64,000 nucleotides of DNA from positions 96 to 64,095 of the forward strand of contig CANQCW010000002.1 in NCBI GenBank assembly GCA_947591055.1. Reading direction: 5' to 3'. A program made the position numbers and the translations under genes. Below are positions 27,030-45,249 of this stretch, in pieces. The stretch comes from an uncultured Clostridia bacterium (GTDB lineage: Bacteria; Bacillota; Clostridia; TANB77; CAG-508). The notes below the pieces were generated by a model. It saw nothing but the letters and a program-made list of their open reading frames with translations, was not told the origin of the DNA and ran no database searches. Numbering within the stretch: position 1 is the first letter of the stretch; every line of letters begins with the position of its first letter.

Positions 27030-27037
27030 AATATAAA

Positions 27038-27071
27038 GGAACGATATAAAAAAATATCGTTTCTTTTTTTT
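27038..27071 (+). terminator. rho-independent terminator
   Basis: GGAACGATAT-aaaaaa-ATATCGTTTC followed by a T7 run. Confidence 0.8.
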
Positions 27072-27125: not shown

Positions 27126-27155
27126 TTGACTAAATAGATTTATAAGAGATATAAT
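27126..27155 (+). promoter_or_regulatory. sigmaA promoter of the polysaccharide operon
   Basis: TTGACT (27126-27131), 18 nt, TATAAT (27150-27155). Confidence 0.6.
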
Positions 27156-27217: not shown

Positions 27218-28282
27218 ATGGCAAAAAAAGAAAAAAAACAAAAAACAGCAATACAAAAGGCTATAAAAATTATATCAATATTATTAATTATACTAGTAAT
27301 TGCCTTAGTAGCGATATTTACAGGTGGATATACATATATAAATTCTTTGATTGGTACAATGAATCAAGAACAAATAGATGAAAGCCAAATAGGCGTAAGT
27401 AGTAAAAGCGAAGAAAATTTAAAAAATTATAGAAACATTGCCTTACTTGGAGTTGATACAAGAAAAGATAATTATGAAACATACAATAACAGAAGTGATT
27501 GTATAATAATTGCAAGTATAAATGAGAAAAATGGAGATATACGATTAATATCTGTATATAGAGATACATATTTGCAAGTAAAAGAATATGGAAAAGATAA
27601 ATTAGACAAAATTACACATGCTTATTCATTTGGAGGGGCACAAAATACTTTACTTGCATTAAATACAAATTTGGATTTAAACATAAAAGAATATGTAACA
27701 GTAAATTTTGATGCAGTAATAGAAGCGGTAGATGCACTAGGTGGAGTTACAATTAATATTACTAATGAAGAAATAAAATATATAAATGACTATATTAAAT
27801 CACTTAACCAATTATTAAATAGATCAGCTAAAAGCATTACAAAGGCTGGACAACAAAACTTAAATGGAATACAAGCACTAGCATATTCAAGAATAAGATA
27901 CACAGCAGGTGGAGATTATAAAAGAACAGAAAGGATGAGAGATGTCTTAGAGGCAATGGCATCAAAGGCAAAAAATCTTGGAATAGGTCAATTAATAAAT
28001 TTAATTAATCTTCTTGTACCTAAAATTAGCACAAACTTATCAACAGGAGACATTATATCATTAGTCCCAACATTGATTAATGGAAATTTCACAGAGAGTA
28101 TGGGATGGCCATATAATACAAAAGGAGTAACGTTTGATTTGTGGTATGGAGCACCTGTTACACTAGAAAGTAATGTAGTAAAAATGCATAAAGAAATATT
28201 TAATGATGCAGATTACGAAGCACCAGAAACAGTAAAAAAGATTAGCAATGATATAATTAGCAAAACTGGATATAAAGAATAA
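27218..28282 (+). CDS. LCP-family (LytR-CpsA-Psr) glycopolymer-peptidoglycan ligase
   Basis: N-terminal TM anchor. NIALLGVDTR...RSDCIIIASINEKNGDIRLISVYRDTY and ALAYSRIRY motifs. Confidence 0.85.
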   Translation: MAKKEKKQKTAIQKAIKIISILLIILVIALVAIFTGGYTYINSLIGTMNQEQIDESQIGVSSKSEENLKNYRNIALLGVDTRKDNYETYNNRSDCIIIASINEKNGDIRLISVYRDTYLQVKEYGKDKLDKITHAYSFGGAQNTLLALNTNLDLNIKEYVTVNFDAVIEAVDALGGVTINITNEEIKYINDYIKSLNQLLNRSAKSITKAGQQNLNGIQALAYSRIRYTAGGDYKRTERMRDVLEAMASKAKNLGIGQLINLINLLVPKISTNLSTGDIISLVPTLINGNFTESMGWPYNTKGVTFDLWYGAPVTLESNVVKMHKEIFNDADYEAPETVKKISNDIISKTGYKE

Positions 28283-28326
28283 AAAACGTACTAAAATTAG
28301 TATATAAAAAGACCAAGAAAAAGGAA

Positions 28327-29046
28327 GTGAATAGTAAAATTAAAATGCAAGCAACGGAAAATGTCGAAAATAATAAAATGATACGTAAAAGAAAAAATGT
28401 AAAACTAATAAATAATAGCGTTAGTAGAAAAGTATATTTATTTATAAAAAATATTTTAGATATATTCGTTGGATTAATAGGGATGATTATATTAATACCA
28501 TTAACAGTTATTGTTTGGATTGTTTTTAAGATAACTAGAGATAAAGGACCAATATTTTACTCACACACCAGAATAGGTAAAGATGGAAAACCTTTTAAAT
28601 TACATAAATTTAGAACAATGTATATCAATGCAGATGAAGAATTAGAAAAAATATTGCAAAAAGATGAAAACTTAAGAAAAGAGTGGGATGAAAATCGCAA
28701 ATTGGCTGAAGACCCAAGAATTACTAAGTTTGGAAAAATATTAAGAAAAACTTCATTAGATGAGTTTCCAAATTTTATTGAAGTATTAACAGGAAAAATG
28801 AGTTTGATTGGACCTAGAGCAGTTGTACCAGAAGAATTAAAAATGTTTGGAAAATATAAAGATGAAATTCTAAAGGTAAAGCCAGGAATAACAGGATATT
28901 GGGCTGCTAATGGAAGAAGTAATATTTCATATAAAGAAAGAGTAAAAATGGAAACATATTATGCTAGAAATGTCTCTTTTATGCTTGATGTGAAAATATT
29001 CTTTAAAACTATAATTTCTATTATAAGTAAAAATGGAGCATTTTAG
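28327..29046 (+). CDS. polyprenyl-phosphate sugar-phosphate transferase (small bacterial sugar transferase, priming enzyme)
   Basis: GPIFYSHTRIGKDGKPFKLHKFRTM...DEFPNFIEVLTGKMSLIGPRA...PGITGYW. The start codon is uncertain (GTG 28327 or ATG 28345). Confidence 0.85.
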   Translation: MNSKIKMQATENVENNKMIRKRKNVKLINNSVSRKVYLFIKNILDIFVGLIGMIILIPLTVIVWIVFKITRDKGPIFYSHTRIGKDGKPFKLHKFRTMYINADEELEKILQKDENLRKEWDENRKLAEDPRITKFGKILRKTSLDEFPNFIEVLTGKMSLIGPRAVVPEELKMFGKYKDEILKVKPGITGYWAANGRSNISYKERVKMETYYARNVSFMLDVKIFFKTIISIISKNGAF

Positions 29047-29074
29047 AGTATAAATTTTAACAAAGGAGGACATT

Positions 29075-30385
29075 ATGCCAAACATAAAAGTAAATTTAAA
29101 ATATGTAGGCATTAAAGAAAACAAAATCTTAGAAAATTCAGATGTTATTGAAGAAATACACAATGAATTAGAAGAAAAAGCAAAACAACCAGAAGAATTT
29201 TTAGGGTGGTTACACTTACCTACAAACTATGACAAAAAGGAATTTCAAAGAATAAAAAAAGCAGCAGAAAAGATAAAAAAAGATTCCGATATTTTGTTAG
29301 TAATAGGAATTGGTGGATCATATTTAGGAGCAAGAGCTGTTATAGAATCTTTGCATAGCTCTATTTACCAAGAAAATAGTAAAGGTGCAAGGGTAATATT
29401 TGTAGGTAATAATTTAAGTCCAAATTATATTAATGATGTAATCGAGCTTTTAGAAGGAAAAGATTTTAGCATTAATGTAATTTCAAAATCAGGAACAACA
29501 ACTGAACCTGCTATTGCATTTAGAATATTTAGAGAAATAATAGAAAATAAATATGGAATAAAAGAAGCAAGAAAAAGAATATATGTTACAACAGATAAGA
29601 AAAAAGGTGCTTTAAAAACATTGGCAGATTCTGAAGGATATGAAACATTTGTAATTCCTGATGATGTAGGAGGAAGATTTTCAGTCCTTACAGCAGTAGG
29701 ACTTCTTCCAATTTCTGCAAGTGGACTAGATATAGAAAAACTAATGAAAGGAGCCTCTGTTGCAGAAGACAAATATGCAGATAAATCACTAAAATACAAT
29801 GAGTGCTACAAATATGCAGTAATAAGAAATTTACTTTATGAAAAAGATAAATCTTTAGAAATACTTGTAACATATGAGCCAAAAATGCATTATTTTATCG
29901 AGTGGTGGAAACAGCTATTTGGCGAAAGTGAAGGAAAAGACGAAAAAGGATTATTTCCAGTTGGAGCAGAATTTACAACTGATCTTCACTCATTAGGACA
30001 ATATATACAAGAAGGCAGAAGACTAATGTTTGAAACAGTTTTGAATATTGAAGAAAGTAAAACAGATATAAAAATAAATTTTGATGAAGATGATTTAGAT
30101 AATCTAAATTATTTGCAAGGAAAATCATTATCATATGTAAATCAAAAAGCTATGGAAGGAACAATTAATGCACATGTAGAAGGTGGAGTTCCTAATATCG
30201 TAATAAATCTAAAAAAATTAGATGAAGAAGCATTAGGAGAACTTATATATTTCTTCGAAAAAGCATGTGCTATGTCAGCGGAATTATTAGAAGTTAATCC
30301 GTTTAATCAACCTGGTGTTGAAAAATATAAAACAAATATGTTTAAGCTTTTAAAGAAGCCAGGATATGAAAACAAAAGAAATTAA
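29075..30385 (+). CDS. pgi: glucose-6-phosphate isomerase
   Basis: 436-aa Firmicute-type PGI: [42 protein letters not shown]. Confidence 0.92.
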
Positions 30386-30407
30386 ATAAAAATAAAAGGA
30401 GAGACTA

Positions 30408-32699
30408 ATGTCAGCTATTGCATGCTTAACAAGTTTTATATTTCTAATCATAAGTATAGTTAGAGAAAAACACAATAAAGCAATAAGCTTTATGTCTCTT
30501 TTTTATGCACTTTGGACTTTTATATTATTTTTATCAATGCTAAATTTATATAATATAACGAAACCTTCAGATGAAGCGTATATACTAATAATGTTAATGC
30601 TTATTTTCTTCGGAATAGGATATTTAATTAGCAATAAAATTTTTAAAAGTAAAAATTTAGAGAAAAAAAATAAAAAAGAATATACGCCAAGATTTAAGCT
30701 CTTTTACCTTTTATGTGGCTGTATTATATTATTTAATATAATAGATATTATAATAATTATAATTCAGTTAACAAAGGGCATACCAATGTGGCAAATTAGA
30801 AATTGGTCATTAGAACCAGTTGGCTCTAGTAATCCAATTTTAGATAGAAGAAGTTTTGTTGAAAATATAATTAGAAATATTATCTTAAGTCCTTTTGCAA
30901 CTATTGTGCCACCAGTTACAGCATACTATTTTTTCTGTAGTAAAGATAAAAAAAATAAATATGCACTTCTTATTATTTCACTTATTATGCTTGTTACAAC
31001 GAGTATAGCCGGAGGTGGAGGAAGACTAGGGTTAATATACTATTTAATGAGTTTTTTACTTGTAGGTATAATAATGCACAGAAATAAAGAAAAACAAGAA
31101 AATACAGTGCATCAGAACAAAAAAATACTAATTATTATATTTGTATGTGCAATATTATTTATAGTACTAGCAACAGTTATAAGAACAGGATTTGGACATA
31201 TTATAAAACAAGTATATACATATTTTGCTTTGCCACCAACATTATTAAGTGTATGGCTTCCAAATATAAAAGAAGTTTCACATACATATGGTCTAACCTC
31301 ATTTTTTGGAGTACATAGCTATATATTTAGAATATTTGAAACAATTGGGGCAAAAGCATTAGTACCACCAATATATAATGAAGCATTTAAAAATATATTA
31401 AATGCAGAAATTTTTAAAAATGTAGGATATGGTATTGCTAACGCATTTGTTACACCAATATATTATTTTTATATTGATGGAGGATATCCTTTTGTTATAT
31501 TAGCATCATTTTTCTTTGGACTTATGATATCGTATTTTTTCAAGAAATTTGAAATTAATATAAATGTAAAAAACTTTGTATTTTATACATTAATCATGTA
31601 TGGTGTTTTATTAACTTTCTCTAGAATTCAAACATCAATACCAGCTTATATTATTTCTTTTGTCATAACAATTTTTATGTTTAAATCTAAGAAAAACGAA
31701 GATAAAAAAGAAGAAATAAAAAGAGATGAAGAAGACTTAATAAGTGTAATTGTACCAGTATATAATGTTGAAGAATATTTAAAAAAGTGTATAGATAGTA
31801 TAATAAGTCAAACATATACTAATTTGGAAATTATATTAGTAGATGATGGATCTAACGATAATTGCGGAAAAATATGTGATGAATATGCTGAAAATGATAA
31901 AAGAATACAAGTAATACATAAAGAAAATGGTGGACTTTCAGACGCAAGAAATGCTGGAATAGATATTGCAAAAGGTAAGTATTTAACATTTATCGATTCA
32001 GATGATTTTGTTGAAAATAACTATATAGAATTATTATATGATGAAGCAAAAAAATATGATGCAGATTTATCAATAGCATCACATAAAGTAATATATAGTA
32101 AAACATGTATGGATAAATCAACAAATGAAGAATTTTGTACTGATGCAAAAACAATATTAGAAAAAATATTATATGATGATGGAGTAGACTTATCAGCATG
32201 GGGAAAACTATATAAATCAAAATTATTTAAAGAAATTAGATATCCAAAAGATAGACTATATGAAGATTCTGCAACTACATATAAATTAATAGATTTAAGT
32301 AATAAAATAGCAGTAAATTCAAAACCAGTATATAACTATGTAATAAGAGAAAAATCTATTACCAATAATGTTTTTTCAGAAAAAAAGCTAGATTTGATTA
32401 CTTCTACAAAAGAAATGACAGATTTTATAAAAACAAAATATCCAGACTTAGAAAAAGCTTGTAACAGAAGATTAATGTATTCATATTTAAGTACATTATC
32501 ACAATTAGCAAAATCAAGTAGTGATAATATAGAAATTGAACAAAAACTTTTAGATTATATTAATGAAAATAAGAAGGAAGTTTTAAAAGACAAAAGAATA
32601 ACTAAAAGAGATAGATTAGGAATATATGCAACAACATTTGGGATGAAATCATATAAATTTTTTTGGAAATGTTATAGTAAATTAACAAAAAGAACTTAA
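30408..32699 (+). CDS. fusion protein: Wzy/EpsG-like polytopic polymerase domain + C-terminal GT2 glycosyltransferase
   Basis: Residues 1-~430 form ~11 TM helices. From ~445 there is a canonical GT2: ISVIVPVYNVEEYLKKCIDSIISQTYTNLEIILVDDGSNDNCG...IDSDDF. Confidence 0.65.
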   Translation: MSAIACLTSFIFLIISIVREKHNKAISFMSLFYALWTFILFLSMLNLYNITKPSDEAYILIMLMLIFFGIGYLISNKIFKSKNLEKKNKKEYTPRFKLFYLLCGCIILFNIIDIIIIIIQLTKGIPMWQIRNWSLEPVGSSNPILDRRSFVENIIRNIILSPFATIVPPVTAYYFFCSKDKKNKYALLIISLIMLVTTSIAGGGGRLGLIYYLMSFLLVGIIMHRNKEKQENTVHQNKKILIIIFVCAILFIVLATVIRTGFGHIIKQVYTYFALPPTLLSVWLPNIKEVSHTYGLTSFFGVHSYIFRIFETIGAKALVPPIYNEAFKNILNAEIFKNVGYGIANAFVTPIYYFYIDGGYPFVILASFFFGLMISYFFKKFEININVKNFVFYTLIMYGVLLTFSRIQTSIPAYIISFVITIFMFKSKKNEDKKEEIKRDEEDLISVIVPVYNVEEYLKKCIDSIISQTYTNLEIILVDDGSNDNCGKICDEYAENDKRIQVIHKENGGLSDARNAGIDIAKGKYLTFIDSDDFVENNYIELLYDEAKKYDADLSIASHKVIYSKTCMDKSTNEEFCTDAKTILEKILYDDGVDLSAWGKLYKSKLFKEIRYPKDRLYEDSATTYKLIDLSNKIAVNSKPVYNYVIREKSITNNVFSEKKLDLITSTKEMTDFIKTKYPDLEKACNRRLMYSYLSTLSQLAKSSSDNIEIEQKLLDYINENKKEVLKDKRITKRDRLGIYATTFGMKSYKFFWKCYSKLTKRT

Positions 32700-32720
32700 A
32701 AAATAAATGGGGAATAAATA

Positions 32721-33752
32721 ATGAAACGAGAAAAATTTATAGATATAGCTAAAGGAATAGCAACAATTTTAGTTATCATTGGACACTGTCAGTACTCTAA
32801 TAGTAAGATAGTAGCTTGGTTATACAGTTTTCATATGCCTTTATTCTTTATGATAAATGGATATTTCATAAAAAATAGTGTAGAACATTTATCACTAGAA
32901 GAATTTACTAAAAGAAAATCAAAACAAATATTAGTGCCATACTTGATATTTTCAATACCAATATATATTAGTTATATTGCAAAAAAGATAATCAAATATA
33001 ATTTCATAAGTACAGATGACGCAGTAAAAAAGTTTGTAGGAATATTTGTAGCAAGTAGAGGTACTAATTTTGATATTGAATTATGGTTTTTAGTTGTACT
33101 ATTCATTGCAGATATATTAACATTTATAATATTAAAAAATATATTTAATAATAAAAAAATAAAAGATAAAAATATAGTAATTGCAGTGCTATCTATTATA
33201 ATTTATTCAGTAGGATTAATTATAACAAATGTAGCAAAAGGATATAACTTTGTTTGGGACTTAGATATTGTTCCACTATGTACATCTTTTATTTTAATGG
33301 GCTATATTCTAAGTGCTATTAATAAGAAAAAGGAAATATTTTCTAATAAAATTTTATGTATAATAATGCTAATAATAAATCTTATATTTGCATACTTGAA
33401 TTATAAAATATGTGGTAAATCAGACATATATGGATCTAATTTAGGAAATGGATTATTTTATTTTGTAGCTGCCATTTCAGGATCAATATTTACATTACAG
33501 ATAAGTAAATTCATAGGAAAAAATAAAATTTTAGAAACAATAGGAAAACACTCATTAACTTATTATGCATTACAAGGGTGTTTAGCATTACCTATTTCCA
33601 AAATGATATGCTTAAAACTATTTAACATAGTAAATTTCAATAATGATTTCTTATTATGTATTTTAATAATTTTATTATCAATTATTATATTAGAAATATT
33701 TAGTAAAATATTAGAAAAGTTAATGCCTAAAATATTTAGTAAAGGGAACTAA
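32721..33752 (+). CDS. acyltransferase family 3 (polysaccharide O-acyltransferase)
   Basis: FIDIAKGIATILVIIGHC...SFHMPLFFMINGYF and ~10 TM helices. Confidence 0.75.
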   Translation: MKREKFIDIAKGIATILVIIGHCQYSNSKIVAWLYSFHMPLFFMINGYFIKNSVEHLSLEEFTKRKSKQILVPYLIFSIPIYISYIAKKIIKYNFISTDDAVKKFVGIFVASRGTNFDIELWFLVVLFIADILTFIILKNIFNNKKIKDKNIVIAVLSIIIYSVGLIITNVAKGYNFVWDLDIVPLCTSFILMGYILSAINKKKEIFSNKILCIIMLIINLIFAYLNYKICGKSDIYGSNLGNGLFYFVAAISGSIFTLQISKFIGKNKILETIGKHSLTYYALQGCLALPISKMICLKLFNIVNFNNDFLLCILIILLSIIILEIFSKILEKLMPKIFSKGN

Positions 33753-33756
33753 TGAA

Positions 33757-34689
33757 ATGAAAAATCCATATGTAAAAATAGCTAGACTAGATCACTGGAT
33801 AAAACAATTATTTATTTTTCCAGGTGTGATAATTGCAATATTTTTAACAAAAGAAAATATATATAATATAAATTTTTTATTTAAAATTATTTTTGGAATT
33901 TTAGGTACATGCTTTATAGCATCAGCTAACTATGTTATAAATGAATACCTAGATGCAGAATTTGATAAATATCATCCAATAAAAAAGAATAGACCTATGG
34001 TTACACAAAATATGAATAAGAAAATTATTTTTTTAGAATATTTTATTTTGATAGTTTTAGGTTTATTATTTGCATATTTTGTTTCAATACAATTTTTTAT
34101 AACTGATTGTATTTTACTTGTGATGGGAATTTTATATAATGTAAAACCTATGAGAACAAAAGATATTCCATTTTTAGATGTATTAACAGAATCAATAAAT
34201 AATGCGTTAAGATTACTATTAGGTTGGTTTATTGTTACAAACAAATATCTACCACCAATTAGCATATTGGGAGGATATTGGATGTTTGGAGCATTTCTAA
34301 TGGCAATGAAAAGGTATTCAGAGTATAAAATGATAAATGACCCTCAAAAAGCTTCATTATATAGAAAATCTTTTAAATATTATACAGAAGAATCTCTTTT
34401 AATATCATCAATATTTTATGCATTATTTTCAATTTTCCTTTGTGGAACTTTTCTTATAAAATATAAAATAGAATTATTGTTATGTATTCCATTTTTATGT
34501 TTTCTTTTCTGTTATTATATACATATAAGCTTTAAACAAGATTCTGCTGCTCAAAGACCAGAGAAGCTATACAAAGAAAAGAATTTAATGATATTTTTAA
34601 TTATGTTTATTATATTATTTTTCATATTATTATACATAGATATTCCACATTTAGATAAGTTATTAGACCAAACACTTATTGAATTATAG
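33757..34689 (+). CDS. UbiA-family prenyltransferase, decaprenyl-phosphate 5-phosphoribosyltransferase-like
   Basis: ARLDHWIKQLFIFPG and ASANYVINEYLDAEFDKYHPIKKNRP (NxxxDxxxDxxHPxKxxRP as in DPPR synthases). 310 aa, ~8 TM. Confidence 0.6.
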   Translation: MKNPYVKIARLDHWIKQLFIFPGVIIAIFLTKENIYNINFLFKIIFGILGTCFIASANYVINEYLDAEFDKYHPIKKNRPMVTQNMNKKIIFLEYFILIVLGLLFAYFVSIQFFITDCILLVMGILYNVKPMRTKDIPFLDVLTESINNALRLLLGWFIVTNKYLPPISILGGYWMFGAFLMAMKRYSEYKMINDPQKASLYRKSFKYYTEESLLISSIFYALFSIFLCGTFLIKYKIELLLCIPFLCFLFCYYIHISFKQDSAAQRPEKLYKEKNLMIFLIMFIILFFILLYIDIPHLDKLLDQTLIEL

Positions 34690-34707
34690 AAAATAGGAGA
34701 TATTAAG

Positions 34708-36243
34708 ATGCAAGAGATTACTAAAAAAAGAATATACAATATTGTAAGTTATACATTTTTATTTATAATGTTTGTTATCATGTGCCTAAATGCTTCAAAA
34801 CAATCATTTTGGATTGATGAATTAGATTGGTGTGTAGAATTTATTTCAAAATCTTCAATATTTGATATGATAAAAGATTTACTAAAAACAGTTTATAATT
34901 TGCCACTTTTTTATTTGGTAATGTTTCCTATATACAAAATAGTTCCATATGGAGAATTTTGGATTTTATTACCTAACATTATAATAACATTAATTTCAAC
35001 TATCATAATGAAAAAAATAGGTGAAAAAATAGGTGGTGAAGATTATGGCTTTGTAACAATGTGCTTAACAATTTCATCATATATTTTGATATATAACGGA
35101 GCATTTGAATTACGACCATACGCATTTTTATTTTTCTTTTCAGCATTAACTTTTTATAGATATATTTGCAAAATAAAAGATAATAATAAGAAAAATAATA
35201 TATTATTCGTAATATCAATGATTTTGCTGGCATATACGCATTGGTTTGGTTGTTTAAGTGTTGCATTTTATTTTATTATTGATACATATTTATGTATTAA
35301 AAAAAGAATACCAATTTCATATATATTACAATATTTTATTGTAGGTTTTACATTTTTACCTTGGTTTATATTTACACTTTTAATGCGAACATCTAATATA
35401 AGCAAATACTGGGCAGATATACCAAACTTGGAATCTGTAATTGAGATGATACAATTCTTATTAAGTGATAATAAGATATGCTTTTTACTATTTACAATTG
35501 GCTTAATATTTTTCTTATTATTAAAAATATTAAAAATTAAGAAAAAATATGATAATTATATAAAACTATGTATATGCGGAATTGTATTTGCTACAAGTGC
35601 CATATTCATATACAGTAGATTCATTAATAATCAAGGTTCATTATTTGTTTATAGATATTTTTTCTGCATATTACCATACATACTAATTATTACTGCATTA
35701 CCACTTTATGAACTTTTAAATTTGAAAATATCTTTTGAAAATAAACCAAAAGAGTTAAGCAATAGAGATATAAAAGTAAGTAAAATTTTAACAACAATAA
35801 TAGTAGTAATTTTATTTATAATAATTACTTGTCAAAATTATTATAGATTATATATAGAGTGTAAATTATACCTTGATCCTTATAGAGAAATTTCAGATGT
35901 TTTAATTAATTCTCCAGAAATATATGAAGAAAACTGTGCTGTAGTAACAAGTGATGGAAAAGGATATTTAACTTATTATTTTGAAAAGCGAGGAAAAAGA
36001 CTACCACTTAATGCATATTCGCAAGTTTTTGGATTCAAGCAATTCGTAAAAAATGGAGAGAGGGTAGAAATAAAAAATCTAGAAAAAGAAGAATTATTAA
36101 ATTATGACGTTTTATATTTGTGTAATGTTAGTACATGGTTTGATACGGATTTTTCAGATTTTATTAAAGAAAATTATAATATGAGAGAGTCTATAAAAAA
36201 ATTAGGAATATATATATTTGAAAAAGATGTTTATCACAACTAA
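34708..36243 (+). CDS. GT-C fold membrane glycosyltransferase (ArnT/PMT/GT39-83-like)
   Basis: ~12 TM helices, first-loop acidic motif SFWIDELDW, and a C-terminal soluble domain. Confidence 0.6.
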   Translation: MQEITKKRIYNIVSYTFLFIMFVIMCLNASKQSFWIDELDWCVEFISKSSIFDMIKDLLKTVYNLPLFYLVMFPIYKIVPYGEFWILLPNIIITLISTIIMKKIGEKIGGEDYGFVTMCLTISSYILIYNGAFELRPYAFLFFFSALTFYRYICKIKDNNKKNNILFVISMILLAYTHWFGCLSVAFYFIIDTYLCIKKRIPISYILQYFIVGFTFLPWFIFTLLMRTSNISKYWADIPNLESVIEMIQFLLSDNKICFLLFTIGLIFFLLLKILKIKKKYDNYIKLCICGIVFATSAIFIYSRFINNQGSLFVYRYFFCILPYILIITALPLYELLNLKISFENKPKELSNRDIKVSKILTTIIVVILFIIITCQNYYRLYIECKLYLDPYREISDVLINSPEIYEENCAVVTSDGKGYLTYYFEKRGKRLPLNAYSQVFGFKQFVKNGERVEIKNLEKEELLNYDVLYLCNVSTWFDTDFSDFIKENYNMRESIKKLGIYIFEKDVYHN

Positions 36244-36328
36244 CTGTAATTTACGAATAATTTTATTTATTTAACACTATTGATTTTTATGATAAGAAAT
36301 TATAAAATCTAACTGAAAGGAGTTATTT

Positions 36329-37045
36329 ATGATATACGCGGGAATATTAGCAGGGGGAATAGGAAAAAGGATGGGAAAAACAGAGCTCCCTAAACAATTT
36401 TTGACTATTACTGAAAAGCCTATTATTATAAATACATTAGAACAATTTGTAATAAATTCAAATGTTGATAAAGTAATTGTAGCAGTTCCTGAAAATTGGC
36501 TAAATTATACTATTGATTTAATAAAAGAATATAAATATAGTGATAAAATTGAAATCACTTGTGGTGGAAAAGATAGAAATGATACTATAATGCAGATATG
36601 CAAATATATTGAAGAAAAGTTTGGACTAAAAGATGATGATATTATAATAACTCATGATGCTGTAAGACCTTTTTTAACACAAAGAATTATTAATGATAAT
36701 ATTGAAGCTTGCAAGCAATATGGAGCAACAGATACTGTAATTCAGGCTACCGATACAATTGTAGAATCAGTAGACAAAGAATTAATTTCCAATATACCAA
36801 ATAGAGAATATATGTATCAAGGACAAACTCCACAATCATTTAAAATAAAAGAACTTATGAATATATATAATGAATTAACAGAAGATGAAAAAAATATTTT
36901 AACAGATGCTTGTAAGATATATGCAATAAAAAATAAAAATGTAAAATTAGTTAAAGGAGAAATATATAATATAAAAATTACTACTCAATATGATTTAAAA
37001 TTAGCAAAAATGATGGTTAAAATAAAAGGGGAAGAAGATGCTTAA
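36329..37045 (+). CDS. tarI: D-ribitol-5-phosphate cytidylyltransferase
   Basis: MIYAGILAGGIGKRMG..LPKQFL (IspD/TarI family); paired with tarJ by a 8-nt overlap. Confidence 0.8.
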   Translation: MIYAGILAGGIGKRMGKTELPKQFLTITEKPIIINTLEQFVINSNVDKVIVAVPENWLNYTIDLIKEYKYSDKIEITCGGKDRNDTIMQICKYIEEKFGLKDDDIIITHDAVRPFLTQRIINDNIEACKQYGATDTVIQATDTIVESVDKELISNIPNREYMYQGQTPQSFKIKELMNIYNELTEDEKNILTDACKIYAIKNKNVKLVKGEIYNIKITTQYDLKLAKMMVKIKGEEDA

Positions 37046-38057
37046 TCAAATTATAAAATTAATAGAACCCAAGAAATTTGAAATATGCTTTAAAGAAGAA
37101 AAAATCGATGACGATGAATATGTTATAATAAGACCTACATATATGTCTATTTGTGCAGCAGATCAAAGATATTATCAAGGATTACGCAATAGGGAAATAC
37201 TAGAAAAGAAATTACCATTATCATTGATACATGAGAGTGTTGGAAAAGTTCTTTATGATCCAAAAGGTGAATTTAAACAAAATCAAAATGTTGTTATGAT
37301 TCCAAATACACCTTCTTTTAATGATGAAGATATTAAAGAAAATTATAGATTAGATTCGTTATTTAGATCTAGCAATATAGATGGTTTTATGCAAAATATA
37401 ATTTTTATAAGAAGAGATAGAATAATACCAATTGAAAATATTAAGGAAAATGTTTCTGTTTTGCTTGAGTTAATGAGCGTAGCAGTAAATGCAGTTGAAA
37501 ATTTAAAAAAAGTTAATATTACAAGTTGTAATAGAATAGGAATTTGGGGACCTGGAAGCGTTGGCTATGCAGTTTATATAATTTTAAAACAATATTTTCC
37601 TAATTCAAAAATAGCAGTAATAGGAACAACAAGAGAAGTTTTAAATTATTATCCTTTAGCAGATGAAAAATATTTGATTACTGAATTAAAAAATGATTTT
37701 ATGATAGATCATGCTTTTGAATGTGTTGGAGGAGAAAAATCAGAAAAAGCAATAGATCAAATAATTAAGCATATTAAGCCACAAGGTACAATTTCATTAT
37801 TAGGAGTATCAGAAGACCCTATTCGCATAAATACAAGAAAGATTTTAGAAAAAGGTCTTACTGTACTAGGTAATAGCAGAAGCAGTTATGCTGATTTTAA
37901 AAAGGCTATTGAAATTTTAAAAAATGATGATATTCAGGAAAATATGGAAAAAATGATATCTGAAATAGTAGAAATTAATGATGTAAATGATATTTATACC
38001 GCTTTTGATAAAGATATTAATAATCAATTTAAAACAGTTATGAAATGGAATTTGTAA
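37038..38057 (+). CDS. tarJ: ribulose-5-phosphate reductase
   Basis: MDR-type dehydrogenase with RPTYMSICAADQRYYQG (TarJ signature ICxADQRY); follows tarI. Confidence 0.8.
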   Translation: MLNQIIKLIEPKKFEICFKEEKIDDDEYVIIRPTYMSICAADQRYYQGLRNREILEKKLPLSLIHESVGKVLYDPKGEFKQNQNVVMIPNTPSFNDEDIKENYRLDSLFRSSNIDGFMQNIIFIRRDRIIPIENIKENVSVLLELMSVAVNAVENLKKVNITSCNRIGIWGPGSVGYAVYIILKQYFPNSKIAVIGTTREVLNYYPLADEKYLITELKNDFMIDHAFECVGGEKSEKAIDQIIKHIKPQGTISLLGVSEDPIRINTRKILEKGLTVLGNSRSSYADFKKAIEILKNDDIQENMEKMISEIVEINDVNDIYTAFDKDINNQFKTVMKWNL

Positions 38058-38061
38058 AATT

Positions 38062-38928
38062 ATGGAGAATAAAATAGACAAAAAACAACAAGAAAAATTA
38101 GATTTGATACATAAAGGAATATTGGAAACAGTAAAAGAATTTATAAAAATATGTAAAAAAAATAACTTCATGTATTTTATGACAGGTGGAACATTAATTG
38201 GGGCAGTTAGACATCAAGGATTTATTCCCTGGGATGATGATATGGATATATTTATGCCAAGAGAAGATTATGAAAAGCTATTAAAATTAAATGAAAAAGA
38301 TTTTCCAGAAGATATTTTTTTGACTCACTACAGTAAAAGTGAAGGAAATAGCACTGACACAAGAATTAAAATAAGAAATAAAAATTACAAAATATATGAA
38401 AACAATGGTGGCAAAACAATTGAATCTAATTTGTTTGTAGATATATTTCCATTAGATGGTTTTCCAACTAACAAAATAAAAACACTTATACATAAAATAA
38501 AATTAAAATATAGAAATGCTATTTTAAGATTTGCAAAATTGCAATTACATAATGAAGAAAAAGATGTTAAAGCTAACAGAAATAAATTAGAAAAAATTAT
38601 ATTTAATATGGATAAAAAATTAAAATTATCTAAACTTATTGACTATAAAAAGCAAATGTACAAATTAGATAATCTACTAAAAAAGTATCCATATACAACA
38701 TCAAAAAAAGTCTTTTTTGCAACAGGACCTTATGGAATGTTTACAGAAATATATCCAAAAAGTTTATTTGAAGAAAGTAAAATGTATAAATTTGAAGATA
38801 TAGAACTTAGAGGAGTAGTTGATTATGATAGACATTTAAGACAAGTTTATGGAGATTATATGGAACTTCCTCCTGTAGAAAAAAGAACATGTAATCATAT
38901 ATTTGATATTAAAAATATAAAGGAGTAA
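38062..38928 (+). CDS. LicD-family phosphotransferase (likely ribitol-phosphate transferase)
   Basis: FMTGGTLIGAVRHQGFIPWDDDMDIFMPRED (LicD DxD region); context with tarIJ. Confidence 0.8.
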   Translation: MENKIDKKQQEKLDLIHKGILETVKEFIKICKKNNFMYFMTGGTLIGAVRHQGFIPWDDDMDIFMPREDYEKLLKLNEKDFPEDIFLTHYSKSEGNSTDTRIKIRNKNYKIYENNGGKTIESNLFVDIFPLDGFPTNKIKTLIHKIKLKYRNAILRFAKLQLHNEEKDVKANRNKLEKIIFNMDKKLKLSKLIDYKKQMYKLDNLLKKYPYTTSKKVFFATGPYGMFTEIYPKSLFEESKMYKFEDIELRGVVDYDRHLRQVYGDYMELPPVEKRTCNHIFDIKNIKE

Positions 38929-38931
38929 TAA

Positions 38932-40002
38932 ATGTCAAAAGTAAGTGTAGTAGTACCAGTATATAATGTTGAAAAATATATACATAAATGTTTAGATTCA
39001 TTAGTAAATCAAACATTACAAGATATTGAAATAATATTAATTGATGATGAATCACCAGATAATTGTGGAAAAATATGTGATGAATATGCTAAAAATGATA
39101 AAAGAATAAAAGTAATACATAAAAAAAATGGAGGAGTTTCAGCAGCTAGAAATGATGGAATAAAACATGCCACTAGTGATTGGATAATGTTTGTTGATTC
39201 AGATGACTGGTGTGAAGAAACTATGTGTGAAATTGCATATGAAAATGCAATTAAAAATAATGTAGATGTTGCTATATTTAATAATTATAGAAACTATGAA
39301 GATTATGAAAAAAAAGAAAAGATTGGACTTAAAGAAACAATTTTTGATGAATATAATGAAATAGAAAAATTACAAATGTCAATGTTATATGATTTTTTCA
39401 TAAAAAAAGTTGATAGTGAAGTGAAACAATATACTGATATAGGGGGACCTTGGAGTAAGATTTTTAAAAAAGAATTAATAGAAAAAAATAATATTGAATT
39501 TAATTTAAAAGTTAAAGGTGTATTTGATGATGCTTTGTTTTGCATAGAAACTATGGAATATGCAAAAAAAGTATTATTTAAAGATGAACTTTTATATCAT
39601 TATAGAATTTTAAATGATTCAATAACAAATAAATTTAAATCAGATAGAATACAAATATACGATACAATATATAAAGAAATAGAACTTTTTATGAATAAAG
39701 CACACAAGAAAGATAATTTCAAAGAAGCATATTATTCAAGAATAATTGTAAATTTATGTAAGTTGCTAAAAATATACTTTTTTCATCCTGCAAATAGTGA
39801 TAAACTATGGAAAAGATTGAAAGAATTGAAAAAAACATTAAATAGTAAACCTTATAATGAAGCTATAAAAAATATAAAATATAGTAGTTTAAGAAAAAGT
39901 TTACAAGTATATTTATGGATATTTAAAACGAAAAGTCCAATTTTAGTTTGGTTATTTTATAAATTAAATGTAATACGAAGGAAAATATTGAGAAAGAACT
40001 AA
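38932..40002 (+). CDS. GT2-family glycosyltransferase
   Basis: VSVVVPVYNVEKYIHKCLDSLVNQTLQDIEIILIDDESPDNCG...VDSDDW. Confidence 0.85.
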   Translation: MSKVSVVVPVYNVEKYIHKCLDSLVNQTLQDIEIILIDDESPDNCGKICDEYAKNDKRIKVIHKKNGGVSAARNDGIKHATSDWIMFVDSDDWCEETMCEIAYENAIKNNVDVAIFNNYRNYEDYEKKEKIGLKETIFDEYNEIEKLQMSMLYDFFIKKVDSEVKQYTDIGGPWSKIFKKELIEKNNIEFNLKVKGVFDDALFCIETMEYAKKVLFKDELLYHYRILNDSITNKFKSDRIQIYDTIYKEIELFMNKAHKKDNFKEAYYSRIIVNLCKLLKIYFFHPANSDKLWKRLKELKKTLNSKPYNEAIKNIKYSSLRKSLQVYLWIFKTKSPILVWLFYKLNVIRRKILRKN

Positions 40003-40030
40003 TACAAAAAACAATAGAAAGGAAATTTTG

Positions 40031-41482
40031 ATGAAAAAATCAATAGCTAAAAACTATATTTATAATTTAATTTATCAAATATTGACTCTAGTATTGCCTT
40101 TAATAACTACACCTTATTTATCAAGAGTTTTAGGCGCAGAAAATATAGGAATATATAGCTATACAATATCTATTACTACTTATTTCATATTGTTTGGTTC
40201 TTTAGGTATAGCTCAATATGGACAAAGAGAAGTAGCATATTTACAAGAAAAAAAAGACAAATATAGTGTTTTATTTTGGGAAATAGTCATACTGAGATTT
40301 ATCACTATGACTATTTCTATGACTATATTTTACTTTACTTTTGCTATAAATAATCAATACCATGTATATTATACTATTTTATTACTTGAATTATTTGGAA
40401 ATTGTTTAGACATAAGTTGGTTTTTCCAAGGCTTAGAAGAATTTAAAAAAACAGTAACTAGAAATATAATGGTAAAGATAATTAGTATTATAAGTATTTT
40501 CTTATTTGTTAAAACATCAAAAGACTTATATATATATATTTGGATATATGTATTAACAACATTAATAGGAAATCTTTCATTATGGGCATATTTGCCAAAA
40601 TTCTTAACCAAGATAACAAAAAAACAAATAAATTTAAAACAACATATAAAACCAACAATTGAATTGTTTATTCCACAAATAGCTATTCAAGTTTATACAC
40701 TTTTAGATAAAACAATGTTAGGAAAAATATTAGGAGATATGTCTGAGGTAGGAAATTATGAACAATCACAAAAGATAATAAAACTTTCTTTAACATTAGT
40801 AACAGCTTTAGGTATAGTAGTATCGCCGAGAATAGCTAATACAATGGCAAAAGGAAAAAAAGAAGATGTAAAGAATTATTTGGCAAACTCATTTAATTTT
40901 GTATGGTTCTTAGGTATGCCTATAATGGTAGGAATAATAGTAGTAGCCCAAAAGGCTGTTCCATGGTTTTTAGGAGAAGATTTTATTAATTCAATTAATC
41001 TATTAATAATTGGATCACCTATTATTATGGCTATAGGATTAAATAATGTATCAGGATTACAATATCTAATTCCAGCTAGAAAACAAAAAATCTTTTCAAA
41101 ATCAGTTATTATAGGAGCAATTTTTAATTTTTGCTTTAACTTAATTTTAATACCGAAATTTAAAGCTATTGGAGCAATTATATCTTCAGTAATGGCAGAA
41201 ATAGTTGTTTTCTTTGTTCAATTATTATACATAAGAAAAGAAGTACCATTAAAAATTGTATATGAAAATAGTTTTAAATACATAATTAGCAGTATAATTA
41301 TGGGAATAATTATATACTTTACAACAATGAATATGAGTGCAAGTATGACTACAACAATAATACAAGTGATAATTGGAATTTTAGTATATGGAATAATGCT
41401 AATTATTTTAAAAGATAAATTTTTATATCAAATTATTGATAAGATAAAAAATAAGATTAATGAAGGCAAAAAAAATATATAA
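40031..41482 (+). CDS. Wzx-type oligosaccharide flippase (MOP superfamily)
   Basis: ~12-14 TM helices. N-terminus KNYIYNLIYQILTLVLPLITTPYLSRVLGAENIG is typical of polysaccharide biosynthesis protein family flippases. Confidence 0.8.
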   Translation: MKKSIAKNYIYNLIYQILTLVLPLITTPYLSRVLGAENIGIYSYTISITTYFILFGSLGIAQYGQREVAYLQEKKDKYSVLFWEIVILRFITMTISMTIFYFTFAINNQYHVYYTILLLELFGNCLDISWFFQGLEEFKKTVTRNIMVKIISIISIFLFVKTSKDLYIYIWIYVLTTLIGNLSLWAYLPKFLTKITKKQINLKQHIKPTIELFIPQIAIQVYTLLDKTMLGKILGDMSEVGNYEQSQKIIKLSLTLVTALGIVVSPRIANTMAKGKKEDVKNYLANSFNFVWFLGMPIMVGIIVVAQKAVPWFLGEDFINSINLLIIGSPIIMAIGLNNVSGLQYLIPARKQKIFSKSVIIGAIFNFCFNLILIPKFKAIGAIISSVMAEIVVFFVQLLYIRKEVPLKIVYENSFKYIISSIIMGIIIYFTTMNMSASMTTTIIQVIIGILVYGIMLIILKDKFLYQIIDKIKNKINEGKKNI

Positions 41483-41497
41483 TATATAGGAGCAAAA

Positions 41498-42466
41498 ATG
41501 ACAATAAAAGATATTATAAAGAAAATCTTAAAAAAAAGTGGATTGTTTGAAAAAATTAAATATCTAAAAAAGGAAAATGAAAAAAGAAAAAAATTAACCA
41601 AAAAATATATATTTGAAAATAAAATGAAAAATCAAGATAAATTATGCATAATACTTGCAGGATATAAAGATTATTTGTGGGATATAGTTTTTAAAAGAAT
41701 AAAAACTTTTATTCCAGAAGATATTGATGTATGTATATTGTCTAGCGGAAAATATATAGAAGAACTTTCAAATATTGCTAAAGAAAATAATTGGTCTTAC
41801 TTAAGTACGAAAAGAAACAATGTTTCATTAATACAAAATGTAGCGATAAAACAATTTAAAAATGCAAAATACATATATAAAATAGATGAAGACATGTTTA
41901 TAACAAAAAATTTCTTCCAAACATTAATGAAAACTTATAATGACTGTACAAAAAATGGAGAATATAGAGTTGGATTTGTAGCACCAACTATACCAATAAA
42001 CGGATTTGGAAATTTATTGGTTCTAAAAAGATTTAATTTAGTAGAAAAATATGAAGAATTATTTGAAAAACCAATTTATTCTACTGGAAGAGATTTAATG
42101 ATAGAAACTAATATAAAAACAAATGAATTTATGTGGGGAAGTGGAAATTTTTTACCTAATATAGATGAGATGAATGCCATAGTACAAGATGATAAATTTG
42201 AATATGTAACCTGCCCTATAAGATTTAGTATAGGAGCTATTTTATTTACAAGAAAACTGTGGGAAGATATGGAAATGTTTGATGTACCTTCAGGACCAGG
42301 TATGGGGAATGATGAGGAAAAATTATGCACATATTGTATGTGCAATTCTAAAGCAATTATTGTATCAAAAAATACAATAGTAGGACATTTAGCTTTTAAA
42401 ATGCTAAATGAAAAGATGAAAGATTATTTCAATAAAAATAAGAACATTTTTGAAATACATAATTAA
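41498..42466 (+). CDS. hypothetical protein, possible GT-A-like transferase
   Basis: Soluble, 322 aa, with a candidate DxD (YKIDEDMF). No family recognised by eye. Confidence 0.3.
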   Translation: MTIKDIIKKILKKSGLFEKIKYLKKENEKRKKLTKKYIFENKMKNQDKLCIILAGYKDYLWDIVFKRIKTFIPEDIDVCILSSGKYIEELSNIAKENNWSYLSTKRNNVSLIQNVAIKQFKNAKYIYKIDEDMFITKNFFQTLMKTYNDCTKNGEYRVGFVAPTIPINGFGNLLVLKRFNLVEKYEELFEKPIYSTGRDLMIETNIKTNEFMWGSGNFLPNIDEMNAIVQDDKFEYVTCPIRFSIGAILFTRKLWEDMEMFDVPSGPGMGNDEEKLCTYCMCNSKAIIVSKNTIVGHLAFKMLNEKMKDYFNKNKNIFEIHN

Positions 42467-42491
42467 AAAATATATAGTAGAGGGATAATAA

Positions 42492-44495
42492 ATGAAAATA
42501 AAAAACATTATAAAAAAATGTCTAGGCAAAAGAGTACAAATAAAATTAAACTATTATAGAAAACTATATAGAAATGATAGTAGAAAATCTTTAAAAAAAT
42601 TTTTAAAAATAAAATTATACAAATCAAAAAATATAGCCAAGTCAATAAAAAAATTATTATCAAATGTGCAACTTAGTGATTTAGAACCAAACAATAAATT
42701 TTATTATAGTATAGATATTTTTAAAATAATAGACACAAATATTGAAAATTTATCAATAGACTATAATAGAATTTTAAATTATTCACTAAAAGATTATAAA
42801 GAAAAACTAAAAGCCAATATTATAGACGAAAAATTTTATAAAGATGAAATAAATACGATTGAAAGTATTGAATTTCTAATAGATAGAACAGTAAAAAAAT
42901 TACAAGATGATAAGTGCGATGAAAACATAATTAATAATATAAAGAATATTAAAGATAAAAAGGCAAATAGTTTATATGAAGCTTTACAAAGAATATTATT
43001 TTTTAATCAATTGTTATGGCAAACAAGTCATAAATTAAACGGATTAGGAAGATTAGACATAATCCTTTATCCATATTATAAAAAAGATATAGAAAATGAA
43101 ATTATAAATGAAGAAGAAGCAAAAAATTTAATAAAAGAATTTCTAACTACTCTACATAAATATTATGAAAGAAAAAGCAATGTGCTATTAGGAGATACAG
43201 GTCAGATTATTGAATTAGGTGGAAAAGACAAAAACGGAAAATATCAATATAATGAATTAACATATATTTTCATAGAATTAACAAAAGAACTACAATTACC
43301 AGATCCTAAAATATTACTAAGAGTATCTTCTGAAACTCCAAGAGATTTAATTGAAACATCTTTGAAATGTATACAAACAGGAATTGGGTGTCCTCTTTTT
43401 GCTAATGATGATGTTGTTATAGATAAGTTAATTAATTTTGGATATGAAAAAGAAGACGCATATGAATATGGAACATCAGCATGTTGGGAGCCATTTATAA
43501 TTGGAAAGTCATTAGATCAAAATAATTTAAAAAGTATAAATTTTTTACAACCATTTGAAAACTTGTTAGAAGTAGAAAATGTAGAAGATATAAAATCAAC
43601 TCAGCAATTAGTAAGTTTATATAAGAAATATTTAGAAGAATATCTAGATAATTTTATAAAAGAGATAGAAAATAAAAAATTCAATGATGATCCAATATTA
43701 TCATTATTTACAGATGATTGTATAGAAAAAAATTTAGATATATCAAAAGGTGGAGCAAAATATAATCATTATGGCTTTACTGGAGTAGGATTATCTAATT
43801 TAATAAATTCTATAAAAAATGTAGAAATAATTATATTTAAAAATAAAGAAATGTCATTTTCAAATTTAAATGATGCTAGAAAAAATAACTATGAAAATAA
43901 TGAAGAATTAATAAACAAGTTAAAGAATCAAAAAATTAAATATGGAACAGATTATGAAGAAATAATCAATATTACAAATGATATAATAAAATACACAACT
44001 CAAGTAATTAATAAATATAAAAATCCATTAGGCGGAAAATATAAATTTGGATTAAGTGCTCCAAGTTATATTGACTGTTCTAAAAATTTTCCAGCATCTT
44101 TTGATGGAAGAAAAAATGGAGAACCATTTGGTGTACATATATCAAGTAGTATAGAAAACGGATATACAGAACTAATTCAATTTGCATCTAAATTAGATTA
44201 TAATGAGAATAGATTTAATGGTAATGTTGTTGATTTTATTGTATCACCTAGTTTTATAGAAAATAACTTTGATAAATTTGTAGATTTTATAAAATTAAGC
44301 ATACAAAATGGATTCTTTGAAATGCAAATGAATGTAGTAAGTAGTACTACACTTATAGAAGCTAGAAATAATCCTGAAAAATTTCCAAATCTTATAGTTA
44401 GAGTATGGGGCTTTAGTGCATATTTTAATGATTTGCCTGATCAATACAAAGATTATTTAATAGAAAGGGCATTAAAAAGTGAAAATAATAGTTAG
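42492..44495 (+). CDS. short glycyl-radical enzyme (PFL-like fold), unknown substrate
   Basis: GLGRLDIILYPYY, Cys loop YGTSAC(331)WEP, and C-terminal glycyl-radical motif LIVRVWG(640)FSAYFNDL 27 aa from the end. Confidence 0.8.
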   Translation: MKIKNIIKKCLGKRVQIKLNYYRKLYRNDSRKSLKKFLKIKLYKSKNIAKSIKKLLSNVQLSDLEPNNKFYYSIDIFKIIDTNIENLSIDYNRILNYSLKDYKEKLKANIIDEKFYKDEINTIESIEFLIDRTVKKLQDDKCDENIINNIKNIKDKKANSLYEALQRILFFNQLLWQTSHKLNGLGRLDIILYPYYKKDIENEIINEEEAKNLIKEFLTTLHKYYERKSNVLLGDTGQIIELGGKDKNGKYQYNELTYIFIELTKELQLPDPKILLRVSSETPRDLIETSLKCIQTGIGCPLFANDDVVIDKLINFGYEKEDAYEYGTSACWEPFIIGKSLDQNNLKSINFLQPFENLLEVENVEDIKSTQQLVSLYKKYLEEYLDNFIKEIENKKFNDDPILSLFTDDCIEKNLDISKGGAKYNHYGFTGVGLSNLINSIKNVEIIIFKNKEMSFSNLNDARKNNYENNEELINKLKNQKIKYGTDYEEIINITNDIIKYTTQVINKYKNPLGGKYKFGLSAPSYIDCSKNFPASFDGRKNGEPFGVHISSSIENGYTELIQFASKLDYNENRFNGNVVDFIVSPSFIENNFDKFVDFIKLSIQNGFFEMQMNVVSSTTLIEARNNPEKFPNLIVRVWGFSAYFNDLPDQYKDYLIERALKSENNS

Positions 44496-45237: not shown

Positions 45238-45249
45238 ATGGAGACAAAA

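Follow-up and report, generated by a model that had tools for sequence, protein, structure and literature searches.

Which sugar is transferred, and onto what, by the two neighboring membrane proteins encoded at positions 33757-36243 of the stretch of DNA analyzed here? This stretch, referred to as the window, comprises 64,000 nucleotides of contig CANQCW010000002.1 (assembly GCA_947591055.1) from an uncultured Clostridia bacterium. The upstream gene (33757-34689) encodes a UbiA-fold membrane protein, which the initial annotation had taken for a phosphoribosyltransferase of the type of mycobacterial Rv3806c, and the downstream gene a GT-C-fold glycosyltransferase. It appears probable that these two genes—possibly three, if the O-acyltransferase gene in front of them is included—form a cassette that adds a pentofuranose, most probably D-ribofuranose, to a polymer outside the membrane. 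This mechanism is supported by homology and gene context. It would not be new, as it was published in 2024; new would be a synthase from a sister clade, an apparently different GT-C family, the lack of a linked phosphatase or flippase, the O-acyltransferase, and a monoderm, LCP-anchored acceptor.

The 310-residue product of the upstream gene matches Pfam UbiA (E 2.3e-26) and bears both motifs on which the initial annotation had been built: NEYLDAEFDKYHPIKKNRP and the HWIKQ segment are indeed in place. In the cryo-EM structure of Rv3806c, the pyrophosphate of phosphoribosyl pyrophosphate (PRPP) is bound by R22, K87, R90, K143, and Y138 and Mg by N73 and D77; the ribose is contacted by N73 and Q135, the 5′-phosphate is bound by K28, Y70, and Y157, and the lipid phosphate by K28, Y157, and K191 (PMC10994848). 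Prenyltransferase UbiA proteins do not conserve these phosphoribose-binding sites (PMC10994848). In the alignment with Rv3806c, N62, D66, and D70 of NEYLDAEFDKYHPIKKNRP fall onto Mg/pyrophosphate ligands, K76 and R79 onto the pyrophosphate binders K87 and R90, and R10—slightly upstream of HWIKQ—onto R22. Altogether, 11 of the 13 positions that bind PRPP or decaprenyl phosphate are kept (R10, K16, Y59, N62, D66, K76, R79, Y127, K135, K185, and K204).

How far this pattern extends was assessed in a sample of 80 fetched loci, whose family members are 42-76% identical and of which 77 were aligned and counted. The same 11 of 13 positions are kept in all 77, and the pyrophosphate-binding K/R cluster including the Y138 position (R10, K76, R79, K135, and Y127) is invariant. 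The Mg/pyrophosphate motif N-D-x-x-D-x-x-x-D is present as well, with Glu (E63) instead of Asp at its second position, which is a conservative change. As references served seven polyprenyl-phosphate phosphoribosyltransferases (PPPRS)—from Mycobacterium tuberculosis, a Rhodococcus plasmid (with a PAP2 neighbor), Streptomyces, the Lactococcus plasmid pLLF27D, and Flammeovirgaceae (with DprE1/E2 neighbors), together with the HAD fusions of NGR234 and Cereibacter—and four prenyltransferases, namely UbiA, MenA, and CyoE of Escherichia coli and AfUbiA. Five columns (K28, S67, Y70, R160, and K191; here K16, S56, Y59, R152, and K185) are common to the family and seven of seven reference PPPRS and occur in none of the four prenyltransferases.

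Among NCBIfam models, the best for the UbiA protein is DPPRS PRK12324.1-2 (NF008977), with 87.5 bits versus a cut-off of 234, and four of the five best models, two further DPPRS models included, are of phosphoribosyltransferase types. The HAD-UbiA fusion model PRK08238 (NF006088) scores 70.7 bits versus a cut-off of 351, heme O synthase 40.8 bits, and 4-hydroxybenzoate prenyltransferase 32.4 bits. A phmmer search of the PDB with the single sequence returns Rv3806c (8j8j), to which identity is low, first at an E value of 6e-8 and AfUbiA next. With a profile of 30 family members, 8j8j reaches 63.8 bits (E 1.6e-16) and AfUbiA 34.9 bits, and no other UbiA-superfamily structure in the PDB is matched. 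The AlphaFold2 (AF2) model (pLDDT 89.2) displays the nine-helix UbiA fold and is nearest to Rv3806c among solved structures: Foldseek ranks the donor-bound chain 8j8j_A first (TM-scores 0.77/0.82, rmsd 3.4 Å), followed by weaker fits to AfUbiA (0.66/0.70), DGGGP synthase (0.56), and UBIAD1 (0.53). Since 33757-34689 is the sole UbiA-family gene in the assembled genome, a role in quinone or heme synthesis is argued against. In phylogeny, the protein does not cluster with menaquinone, heme O, or aromatic prenyltransferases. Two trees were calculated, a quick one of 50 rows, in which every second family member was omitted, and a more careful one under LG+C20, whose 27 rows include 16 family members; in the latter, the family forms a clade of its own (support 81/76).

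The GT-C assignment of the neighboring gene, likewise part of the initial annotation, is borne out by the predicted structure. The UbiA gene is followed after a gap of 18 nt, which contains an AGGAG ribosome-binding site, by the gene of a 511-residue protein, whose AF2 model (pLDDT 89.1, pTM 0.88) consists of approximately 11 to 12 membrane helices and a C-terminal α/β domain of 125 residues. The top 44 Foldseek matches in the PDB are all GT-C enzymes, comprising ALG9, STT3/PglB/AglB, ArnT (TM-score 0.59), Pmt, EmbA/B/C, AftA/B, and DPY19. Pfam gives no match for the protein itself, and NCBIfam gives a weak match to the mycobacterial GT-C mannosyltransferase MT1671. Its family is small (24 matches); three of 20 aligned members match PMT_2 (PF13231), and the family is linked at E 5.7e-31 to a protein named "glycosyltransferase family 39 protein" and also to a PMT_2-bearing protein. 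In the motif FWIDELDW, the residues W35, D37, and E38 do not vary across the family. They directly follow the first transmembrane helix, and the basic N terminus predicts an N-in topology, which would place the motif on the opposite side of the membrane. Catalytic acids of GT-C enzymes are typically found in the first extracytoplasmic loop, and protein O-mannosyltransferases bear a comparable Asp-Glu pair in their first luminal loop. D37 and E38 are hence candidate catalytic acids. By hhalign, the GT-C family has a probability of 0.1% of being related to the 658-residue protein beside the HAD-UbiA fusion of NGR234—a presumed GT136 relative—and no relation was found to the 533-residue protein beside the Lactococcus PPPRS. 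The 511-residue enzyme lies nearer to the PMT_2/GT39 type, and the comparison with a presumed relative gives no basis for placing it in GT136.

The nature of the donor sugar depends on whether an epimerase takes part. The genome is a metagenome-assembled genome (MAG) of 1.25 Mb in 100 contigs, with approximately 26% G+C and a completeness of 69%, so that genome-wide absences—of a phosphatase, a flippase, or DprE1/DprE2—are inconclusive. At the level of the locus, the reported lack of a DprE1/DprE2 pair holds: the 17 genes that lie between 26.2 and 46.4 kb include no such pair of FAD oxidase and short-chain dehydrogenase/reductase (SDR). In the assembled genome, the Pfam ALO domain has no match, and tblastn searches seeded with two DprE1 and two DprE2 sequences found no DprE1 and only generic short SDR matches.

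The relatives' loci extend this view. Neighbors in the 80 loci were compared by open reading frame (ORF) calling, clustering, and Pfam and NCBIfam labels for the cluster representatives. Within 10 kb of the UbiA gene, no homologue of DprE1, DprE2, or GtrA (E<=1e-5) was found in any of the 80 loci, and an SMR homologue occurs in one. The only recurrent SDR neighbor is an ordinary nucleotide-sugar dehydratase, present in four loci. A HAD phosphatase lies within two genes of the UbiA gene in 36 of the 77 relatives—and in 25 of the 61 whose flanks are visible. It is usually the immediate next gene and belongs to one of two subfamilies, an IA-like (L071:2711-3358) and an IB-like one (L023:10923-11510), which suggests that the dephosphorylation step was recruited independently. 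Within four genes, GT-C enzymes of a recognizable family are found in 44 of the 77 relatives (GT87-type in 27 loci, the type of the 511-residue protein in 12, PMT_2-like in five) and a large polytopic protein of any sort in 66; about 12 bear a small neighbor with two to five transmembrane helices. A single GT-C family as the defining element of the module was considered and rejected, as BLASTP of the 511-residue protein against the large membrane neighbors of two relatives gave no similarity and the partners are diverse. Among the closest relatives, L008 and L009 show the order UbiA-HAD-GT-C and L007, L010, L011, and L013 the order UbiA-GT-C, as at 33757-36243. It is the UbiA and GT-C pair alone that is shared with these loci and not the remaining genes of the operon. 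In L007 (= L004; 3218-4754), which carries the closest relative (76% identity), the GT-C gene is split into ORFs of 405 and 113 residues; this may reflect a frameshift, a pseudogene, or an assembly error.

Taken together, a four-step route can be proposed. On the cytoplasmic face, the UbiA-fold enzyme would convert PRPP and undecaprenyl phosphate to polyprenyl-P-ribofuranose-5-P, which we infer from the conserved substrate residues, the fold, and the gene context. The 5-phosphate would then be removed—a gap in the route, as a phosphatase gene for this step was seen neither in the locus nor in the assembled genome—and the lipid-linked ribose would be flipped across the membrane, a further gap, as no SMR, GtrA, or ArnE-type gene was found. 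Finally, the GT-C enzyme would transfer ribofuranose to the polymer outside the membrane; the grounds for this step are the GT-C fold, the invariance of D37 and E38 in the first outer loop, and the adjacency of the genes. Since no epimerase is found in the locus or in the 80 relatives' loci, the sugar would stay ribose, and ribofuranose is the simplest donor sugar. The initial proposal of a ribofuranosyl donor used extracytoplasmically thus gains support from the phosphoribosyltransferase-like residues, the GT-C fold, and the lack of an epimerase across the relatives. The acceptor is likely the polymer of the surrounding operon.

Several observations weigh against this route or parts of it. 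The UbiA family falls outside the clade that unites the seven reference PPPRS (support 97/100), and the grouping of the family and PPPRS against the four prenyltransferases reaches only 75/50, with four very long outgroup branches. The family is hence placed as a sister clade of the reference PPPRS by a weak attachment. All NCBIfam scores of the UbiA protein lie far under the curated equivalog cut-offs. Three changes at the substrate site are invariant in all 77 members: D74E (E63), Q135G (G124), and Y157N (N149). The family therefore retains neither the ribose O3 contact Q135 nor the 5′-phosphate contact Y157—columns in which the references differ from one another as well (Q/N/T and Y/F) and which are thus weak criteria. 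No phosphatase is encoded in the locus, and neither a homologue of the relatives' HAD partner (tblastn and hidden Markov model searches) nor GtrA or SMR (Pfam and seed tblastn) was found in the 69%-complete genome, the latter two being absent from the locus, too. What stands of the Rv3806c-type assignment is hence the pattern of residues, the ranking of models, the fold, and the side of the tree; the position in a sister clade, the sub-threshold 87.5 bits, and the three invariant changes speak for a product that, by these sequence comparisons, is not an Rv3806c-type orthologue in the strict sense and whose family no curated model covers above threshold.

Some of these points allow for other readings. 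If the UbiA protein did not depend on PRPP and used another substrate pair, the GT-C enzyme would draw on a lipid donor made elsewhere. The separate clade with its weak attachment, the sub-threshold scores, the three invariant changes, and AfUbiA as an almost equal Foldseek match by E value would fit such a case; we nevertheless consider it improbable, as the five PPPRS-only columns and the entire pyrophosphate K/R cluster are retained, a recurrent HAD phosphatase partner makes sense only with a phosphorylated product, and the locus offers neither a quinone or heme pathway context nor a GtrB-type GT2. The donor might also be made from PRPP and never be dephosphorylated, so that ribofuranose-5-phosphate is what the GT-C enzyme transfers, or the phosphate is lost only afterwards, and a phosphoribosyl decoration results. 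The missing HAD-partner homologue, the limited share of relatives with a HAD gene nearby, and the family-invariant Y157N at the 5′-phosphate contact all agree with this. However, GT-C enzymes of the same family occur with a HAD gene (L008, L009, L015, and L025) and without (L007, L010, L011, L013, and this locus), an argument for a single shared donor. The assembly lacks 31% of the genome, and generic HAD_2-like and PAP2-like ORFs are present on other contigs. In Citrobacter, moreover, a phosphatase-dead mutant still yielded some ribofuranose (Ribf) (PMC11127046), and a phosphoribosyl decoration therefore seems quite unlikely to us. A related thought concerns the sister clade as a whole: that its E63/G124/N149 enzymes make a chemically different donor, such as a polyprenyl-P-ribose-5-P used directly for phosphoribosyl decorations, or work without a dedicated flippase as a two-component system, is unlikely, yet worth keeping in mind.

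The transferred sugar might finally be another pentofuranose, arabinofuranose (Araf) or xylofuranose (Xylf), provided by an unlinked or unrecognized epimerase. A single added epimerase gene changes the sugar and GT-C enzymes can be promiscuous (PMC11127046), part of the genome is unseen, and the operon encodes a functionally unassigned glycyl-radical enzyme and a likewise unassigned 322-residue protein. On the contrary, DprE1/DprE2 were found neither in the assembled genome nor near the family genes in the 80 loci, the sole recurrent SDR neighbor is the dehydratase mentioned above, and the glycyl-radical enzyme co-occurs with the UbiA family in none of the 80 loci—by which it was ruled out as the missing epimerase or a partner of the module. 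This possibility is thus held to be very unlikely, and a route ending in ribofuranose is the reading followed below.

With regard to the phosphatase, for which a genome-wide search had been proposed at the outset, seed tblastn of the 69%-complete genome detected no PAP2 homologue of the Rhodococcus type, in addition to the missing HAD-partner homologue, and the only candidates are a weak, generic HAD_2-like ORF on contig C68 and a PAP2-like ORF on contig C3, which are not informative. The corresponding search for dprE1/dprE2 agreed with the expected absence within the same limits.

The closest known counterpart is the system of Citrobacter youngae O1/O2, in which the PRP-PPPRS fusion ORF15 makes undecaprenyl-P-Ribf from PRPP, as shown biochemically (Kelly et al. 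2024, PMC11127046). Hereby, the small transporter ORF14 is the inferred flippase, and ORF12, a GT-C enzyme and founder of GT136, adds α-Ribf to the finished O antigen (PMC11127046). An added SDR epimerase leads to Xylf, and homologues of DprE1/E2 go with Araf-containing glycans (PMC11127046). The locus of the window resembles this system in that a candidate UbiA-fold PRPP:polyprenyl-P phosphoribosyltransferase lies beside a GT-C gene in a surface-polysaccharide locus without DprE1/E2, and in that ribofuranose is predicted to be added after polymerization. It differs in several respects. The UbiA protein lacks the fused PRP (HAD) domain and comes from a clade that is sister to the reference PPPRS, neither a stand-alone phosphatase gene nor one for a small flippase was found, and the GT-C enzyme has no profile similarity to the presumed GT136 relative, being nearer to PMT_2/GT39. 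Furthermore, the cassette comes with an Acyl_transf_3 gene, and in place of a lipopolysaccharide O antigen there is the LCP-attached polymer of a monoderm gut anaerobe.

With the mycobacterial decaprenylphosphoryl arabinose pathway (Rv3806c, Rv3807c, DprE1/DprE2, and Emb/Aft), the locus shares the fold and substrate residues of the first step and, in the route proposed here, a GT-C enzyme that draws on a polyprenyl-P-pentofuranose. In contrast to that pathway, it bears neither a PAP2 phosphatase neighbor nor DprE1/DprE2, the lipid is presumably undecaprenyl and not decaprenyl, and a single side-chain decoration is predicted instead of arabinan polymerization. Gtr/Csd glucosylation systems, composed of a GtrB-like GT2, GtrA, and a GT-C enzyme, are similar as mobile cassettes for the decoration of a finished polymer by a GT-C enzyme from a polyprenyl-monophosphate sugar. 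Here, however, the donor synthase would be of the UbiA-fold PRPP type and not a UDP-sugar GT2, and GtrA is lacking.

Within the Firmicutes, the dairy exopolysaccharide cluster of the Lactococcus sp. plasmid pLLF27D (L087, 7371-10703) encodes in a row a 533-residue membrane protein, a PPPRS, a HAD-IB phosphatase, and GtrA, as judged by PGAP annotation only. With this set, a cultured Firmicute would possess all parts of a candidate pentofuranose system. In both Firmicute polysaccharide loci, a PPPRS-type gene neighbors that of a large membrane protein, and an LCP gene is present; on the other side, the Lactococcus PPPRS falls inside the reference clade, its cluster has its own phosphatase and GtrA, and the membrane protein is unrelated by hhalign. 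The claim that such a route is poorly documented in Firmicutes can be kept in part. A literature search found no experimental work on Firmicute systems of this kind beyond Kelly et al. and its commentary; yet the mechanism is published for Citrobacter, and the supporting information of that study flags candidates without a known glycan structure, with one Gram-positive example, Bacillus sp. NP157 (PMC11127046).

Both genes sit within a single long array on the + strand (Table 1). It encodes, in this order, an LCP ligase, a short WbaP-type phosphoglycosyltransferase, Pgi, a Wzy-GT2 fusion, Acyl_transf_3, the UbiA homologue, the 511-residue GT-C enzyme, TarI, a TarJ-like reductase, LicD, a GT2, Wzx, the 322-residue protein, the glycyl-radical enzyme, its activase, and Glf. 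From this gene content, the array is a Wzx/Wzy-dependent, peptidoglycan-anchored wall or capsule polysaccharide locus. By annotation, the TarI, TarJ-like, and LicD genes would account for CDP-ribitol supply and ribitol-phosphate transfer. The downstream GT2 was considered as a GtrB-type donor synthase for the GT-C enzyme and ruled out, as it has no transmembrane helices. Upstream of the array, a terminator-like hairpin (27035-27066) is followed by a promoter-like site with 11 of 12 matching positions (27126-27155). The promoter scan gave a result no better than chance, no terminator-like site on the + strand lies between 33757 and 36243, and the intergenic gaps in the locus are too short to hold an unannotated gene.

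Table 1. Coordinates of the features discussed, in positions of the window.
Feature	Positions	Strand	Basis
Polysaccharide operon	27218..46389	+	Pfam and NCBIfam labels of encoded proteins
Acyl_transf_3 membrane O-acyltransferase	32721..33752	+	Pfam E 3.4e-33
PPPRS-like UbiA-fold membrane protein, 310 aa	33757..34689	+	Pfam UbiA, NCBIfam, PDB sequence and fold matches, substrate residues
HWIKQ segment, aa 13-17	33793..33807	+	K16 = K28 of Rv3806c
First cytoplasmic-loop motif NEYLDAEFDKYHPIKKNRP, aa 62-80	33940..33996	+	Alignment with Rv3806c
GT-C-fold glycosyltransferase, 511 aa	34708..36243	+	AF2 and Foldseek, PMT_2 matches of the family
First extracytoplasmic-loop motif FWIDELDW, aa 34-41	34807..34830	+	Family invariance, AF2 topology

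The O-acyltransferase gene ends 4 nt upstream of the UbiA gene. Acyl_transf_3 genes also adjoin the module in the relatives' loci L008, L011/L005, L012/L001, and L030, and it is possible that this enzyme belongs to the cassette as well and acetylates either the decoration or the acceptor of the decoration.

Three further observations concern genes of the operon. At 30408-32699, a single ORF of 763 residues codes for a Wzy-type repeat-unit polymerase (TIGR04370, 115.7 bits) and, fused to it, a complete GT2 domain. Between the phosphoglycosyltransferase and polymerase genes, 29075-30385 encodes a bona fide glucose-6-phosphate isomerase, which scores 681 bits for NF010697 and lies above its cut-off. 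At 42492-45237, a glycyl-radical enzyme of 667 residues and its radical-SAM activase are encoded within the polysaccharide operon.

The UbiA family reaches well beyond this genome, with 3,674 matches at E<=0.001 in the protein collection searched; some members are labeled "decaprenyl-phosphate phosphoribosyltransferase" by PGAP. The bacterial hosts of the 80 loci belong to Bacillota, Bacteroidota, Spirochaetota, Elusimicrobiota, Coriobacteriia, Kiritimatiellia, Acidobacteriota, and Verrucomicrobiota; the gut-anaerobe carriers span at least eight phyla, Methanobrevibacter included. Among the carriers that are available in culture are Butyrivibrio sp. LB2008 (L041), Lachnospiraceae bacterium XBB2008 (L022), and Blautia sp. 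HCP28S3_G10. The nearest homologues of the UbiA protein (71-76% identity) stem from rabbit-gut "Lapin" MAGs, labeled as uncultured Clostridia or Bacilli, with different flanking genes. Among 40 related genomes, drawn from 24 congeneric species and 16 species that share only the order, none contains the UbiA gene, and the UbiA/GT-C cassette therefore looks, by its distribution, like a mobile, horizontally acquired accessory module for decoration. A Methanobrevibacter sp. MAG (L074, 4313-5227) carries a family member of 56% identity, followed by a 189-residue gene and two large polytopic proteins, which suggests cassette transfer between domains in gut communities.

If the proposed route holds, ribofuranose or other pentofuranose side chains would be a common, horizontally exchanged means by which gut Firmicutes and their neighbors vary wall and capsule polysaccharides, with a bearing on phage receptors, on the immune recognition of commensals, and on glycoengineering. 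A single assigned function would annotate thousands of genes in this unmodeled UbiA family. The remaining interest hence lies in a large sister family that is usually without a linked flippase, often without a phosphatase, and bears invariant changes at two ribose/5′-phosphate contacts.

A minor observation concerns phages. A tblastn search of a phage collection with the UbiA protein gave no match. The human fecal phage contig MT837543.1 (6.6 kb, unannotated) encodes at 5129-5734 an Rv3806c-like protein with 32.5% identity over 94% of the Rv3806c query fragment, which is reminiscent of the system on a phage that Kelly et al. mention (PMC11127046).

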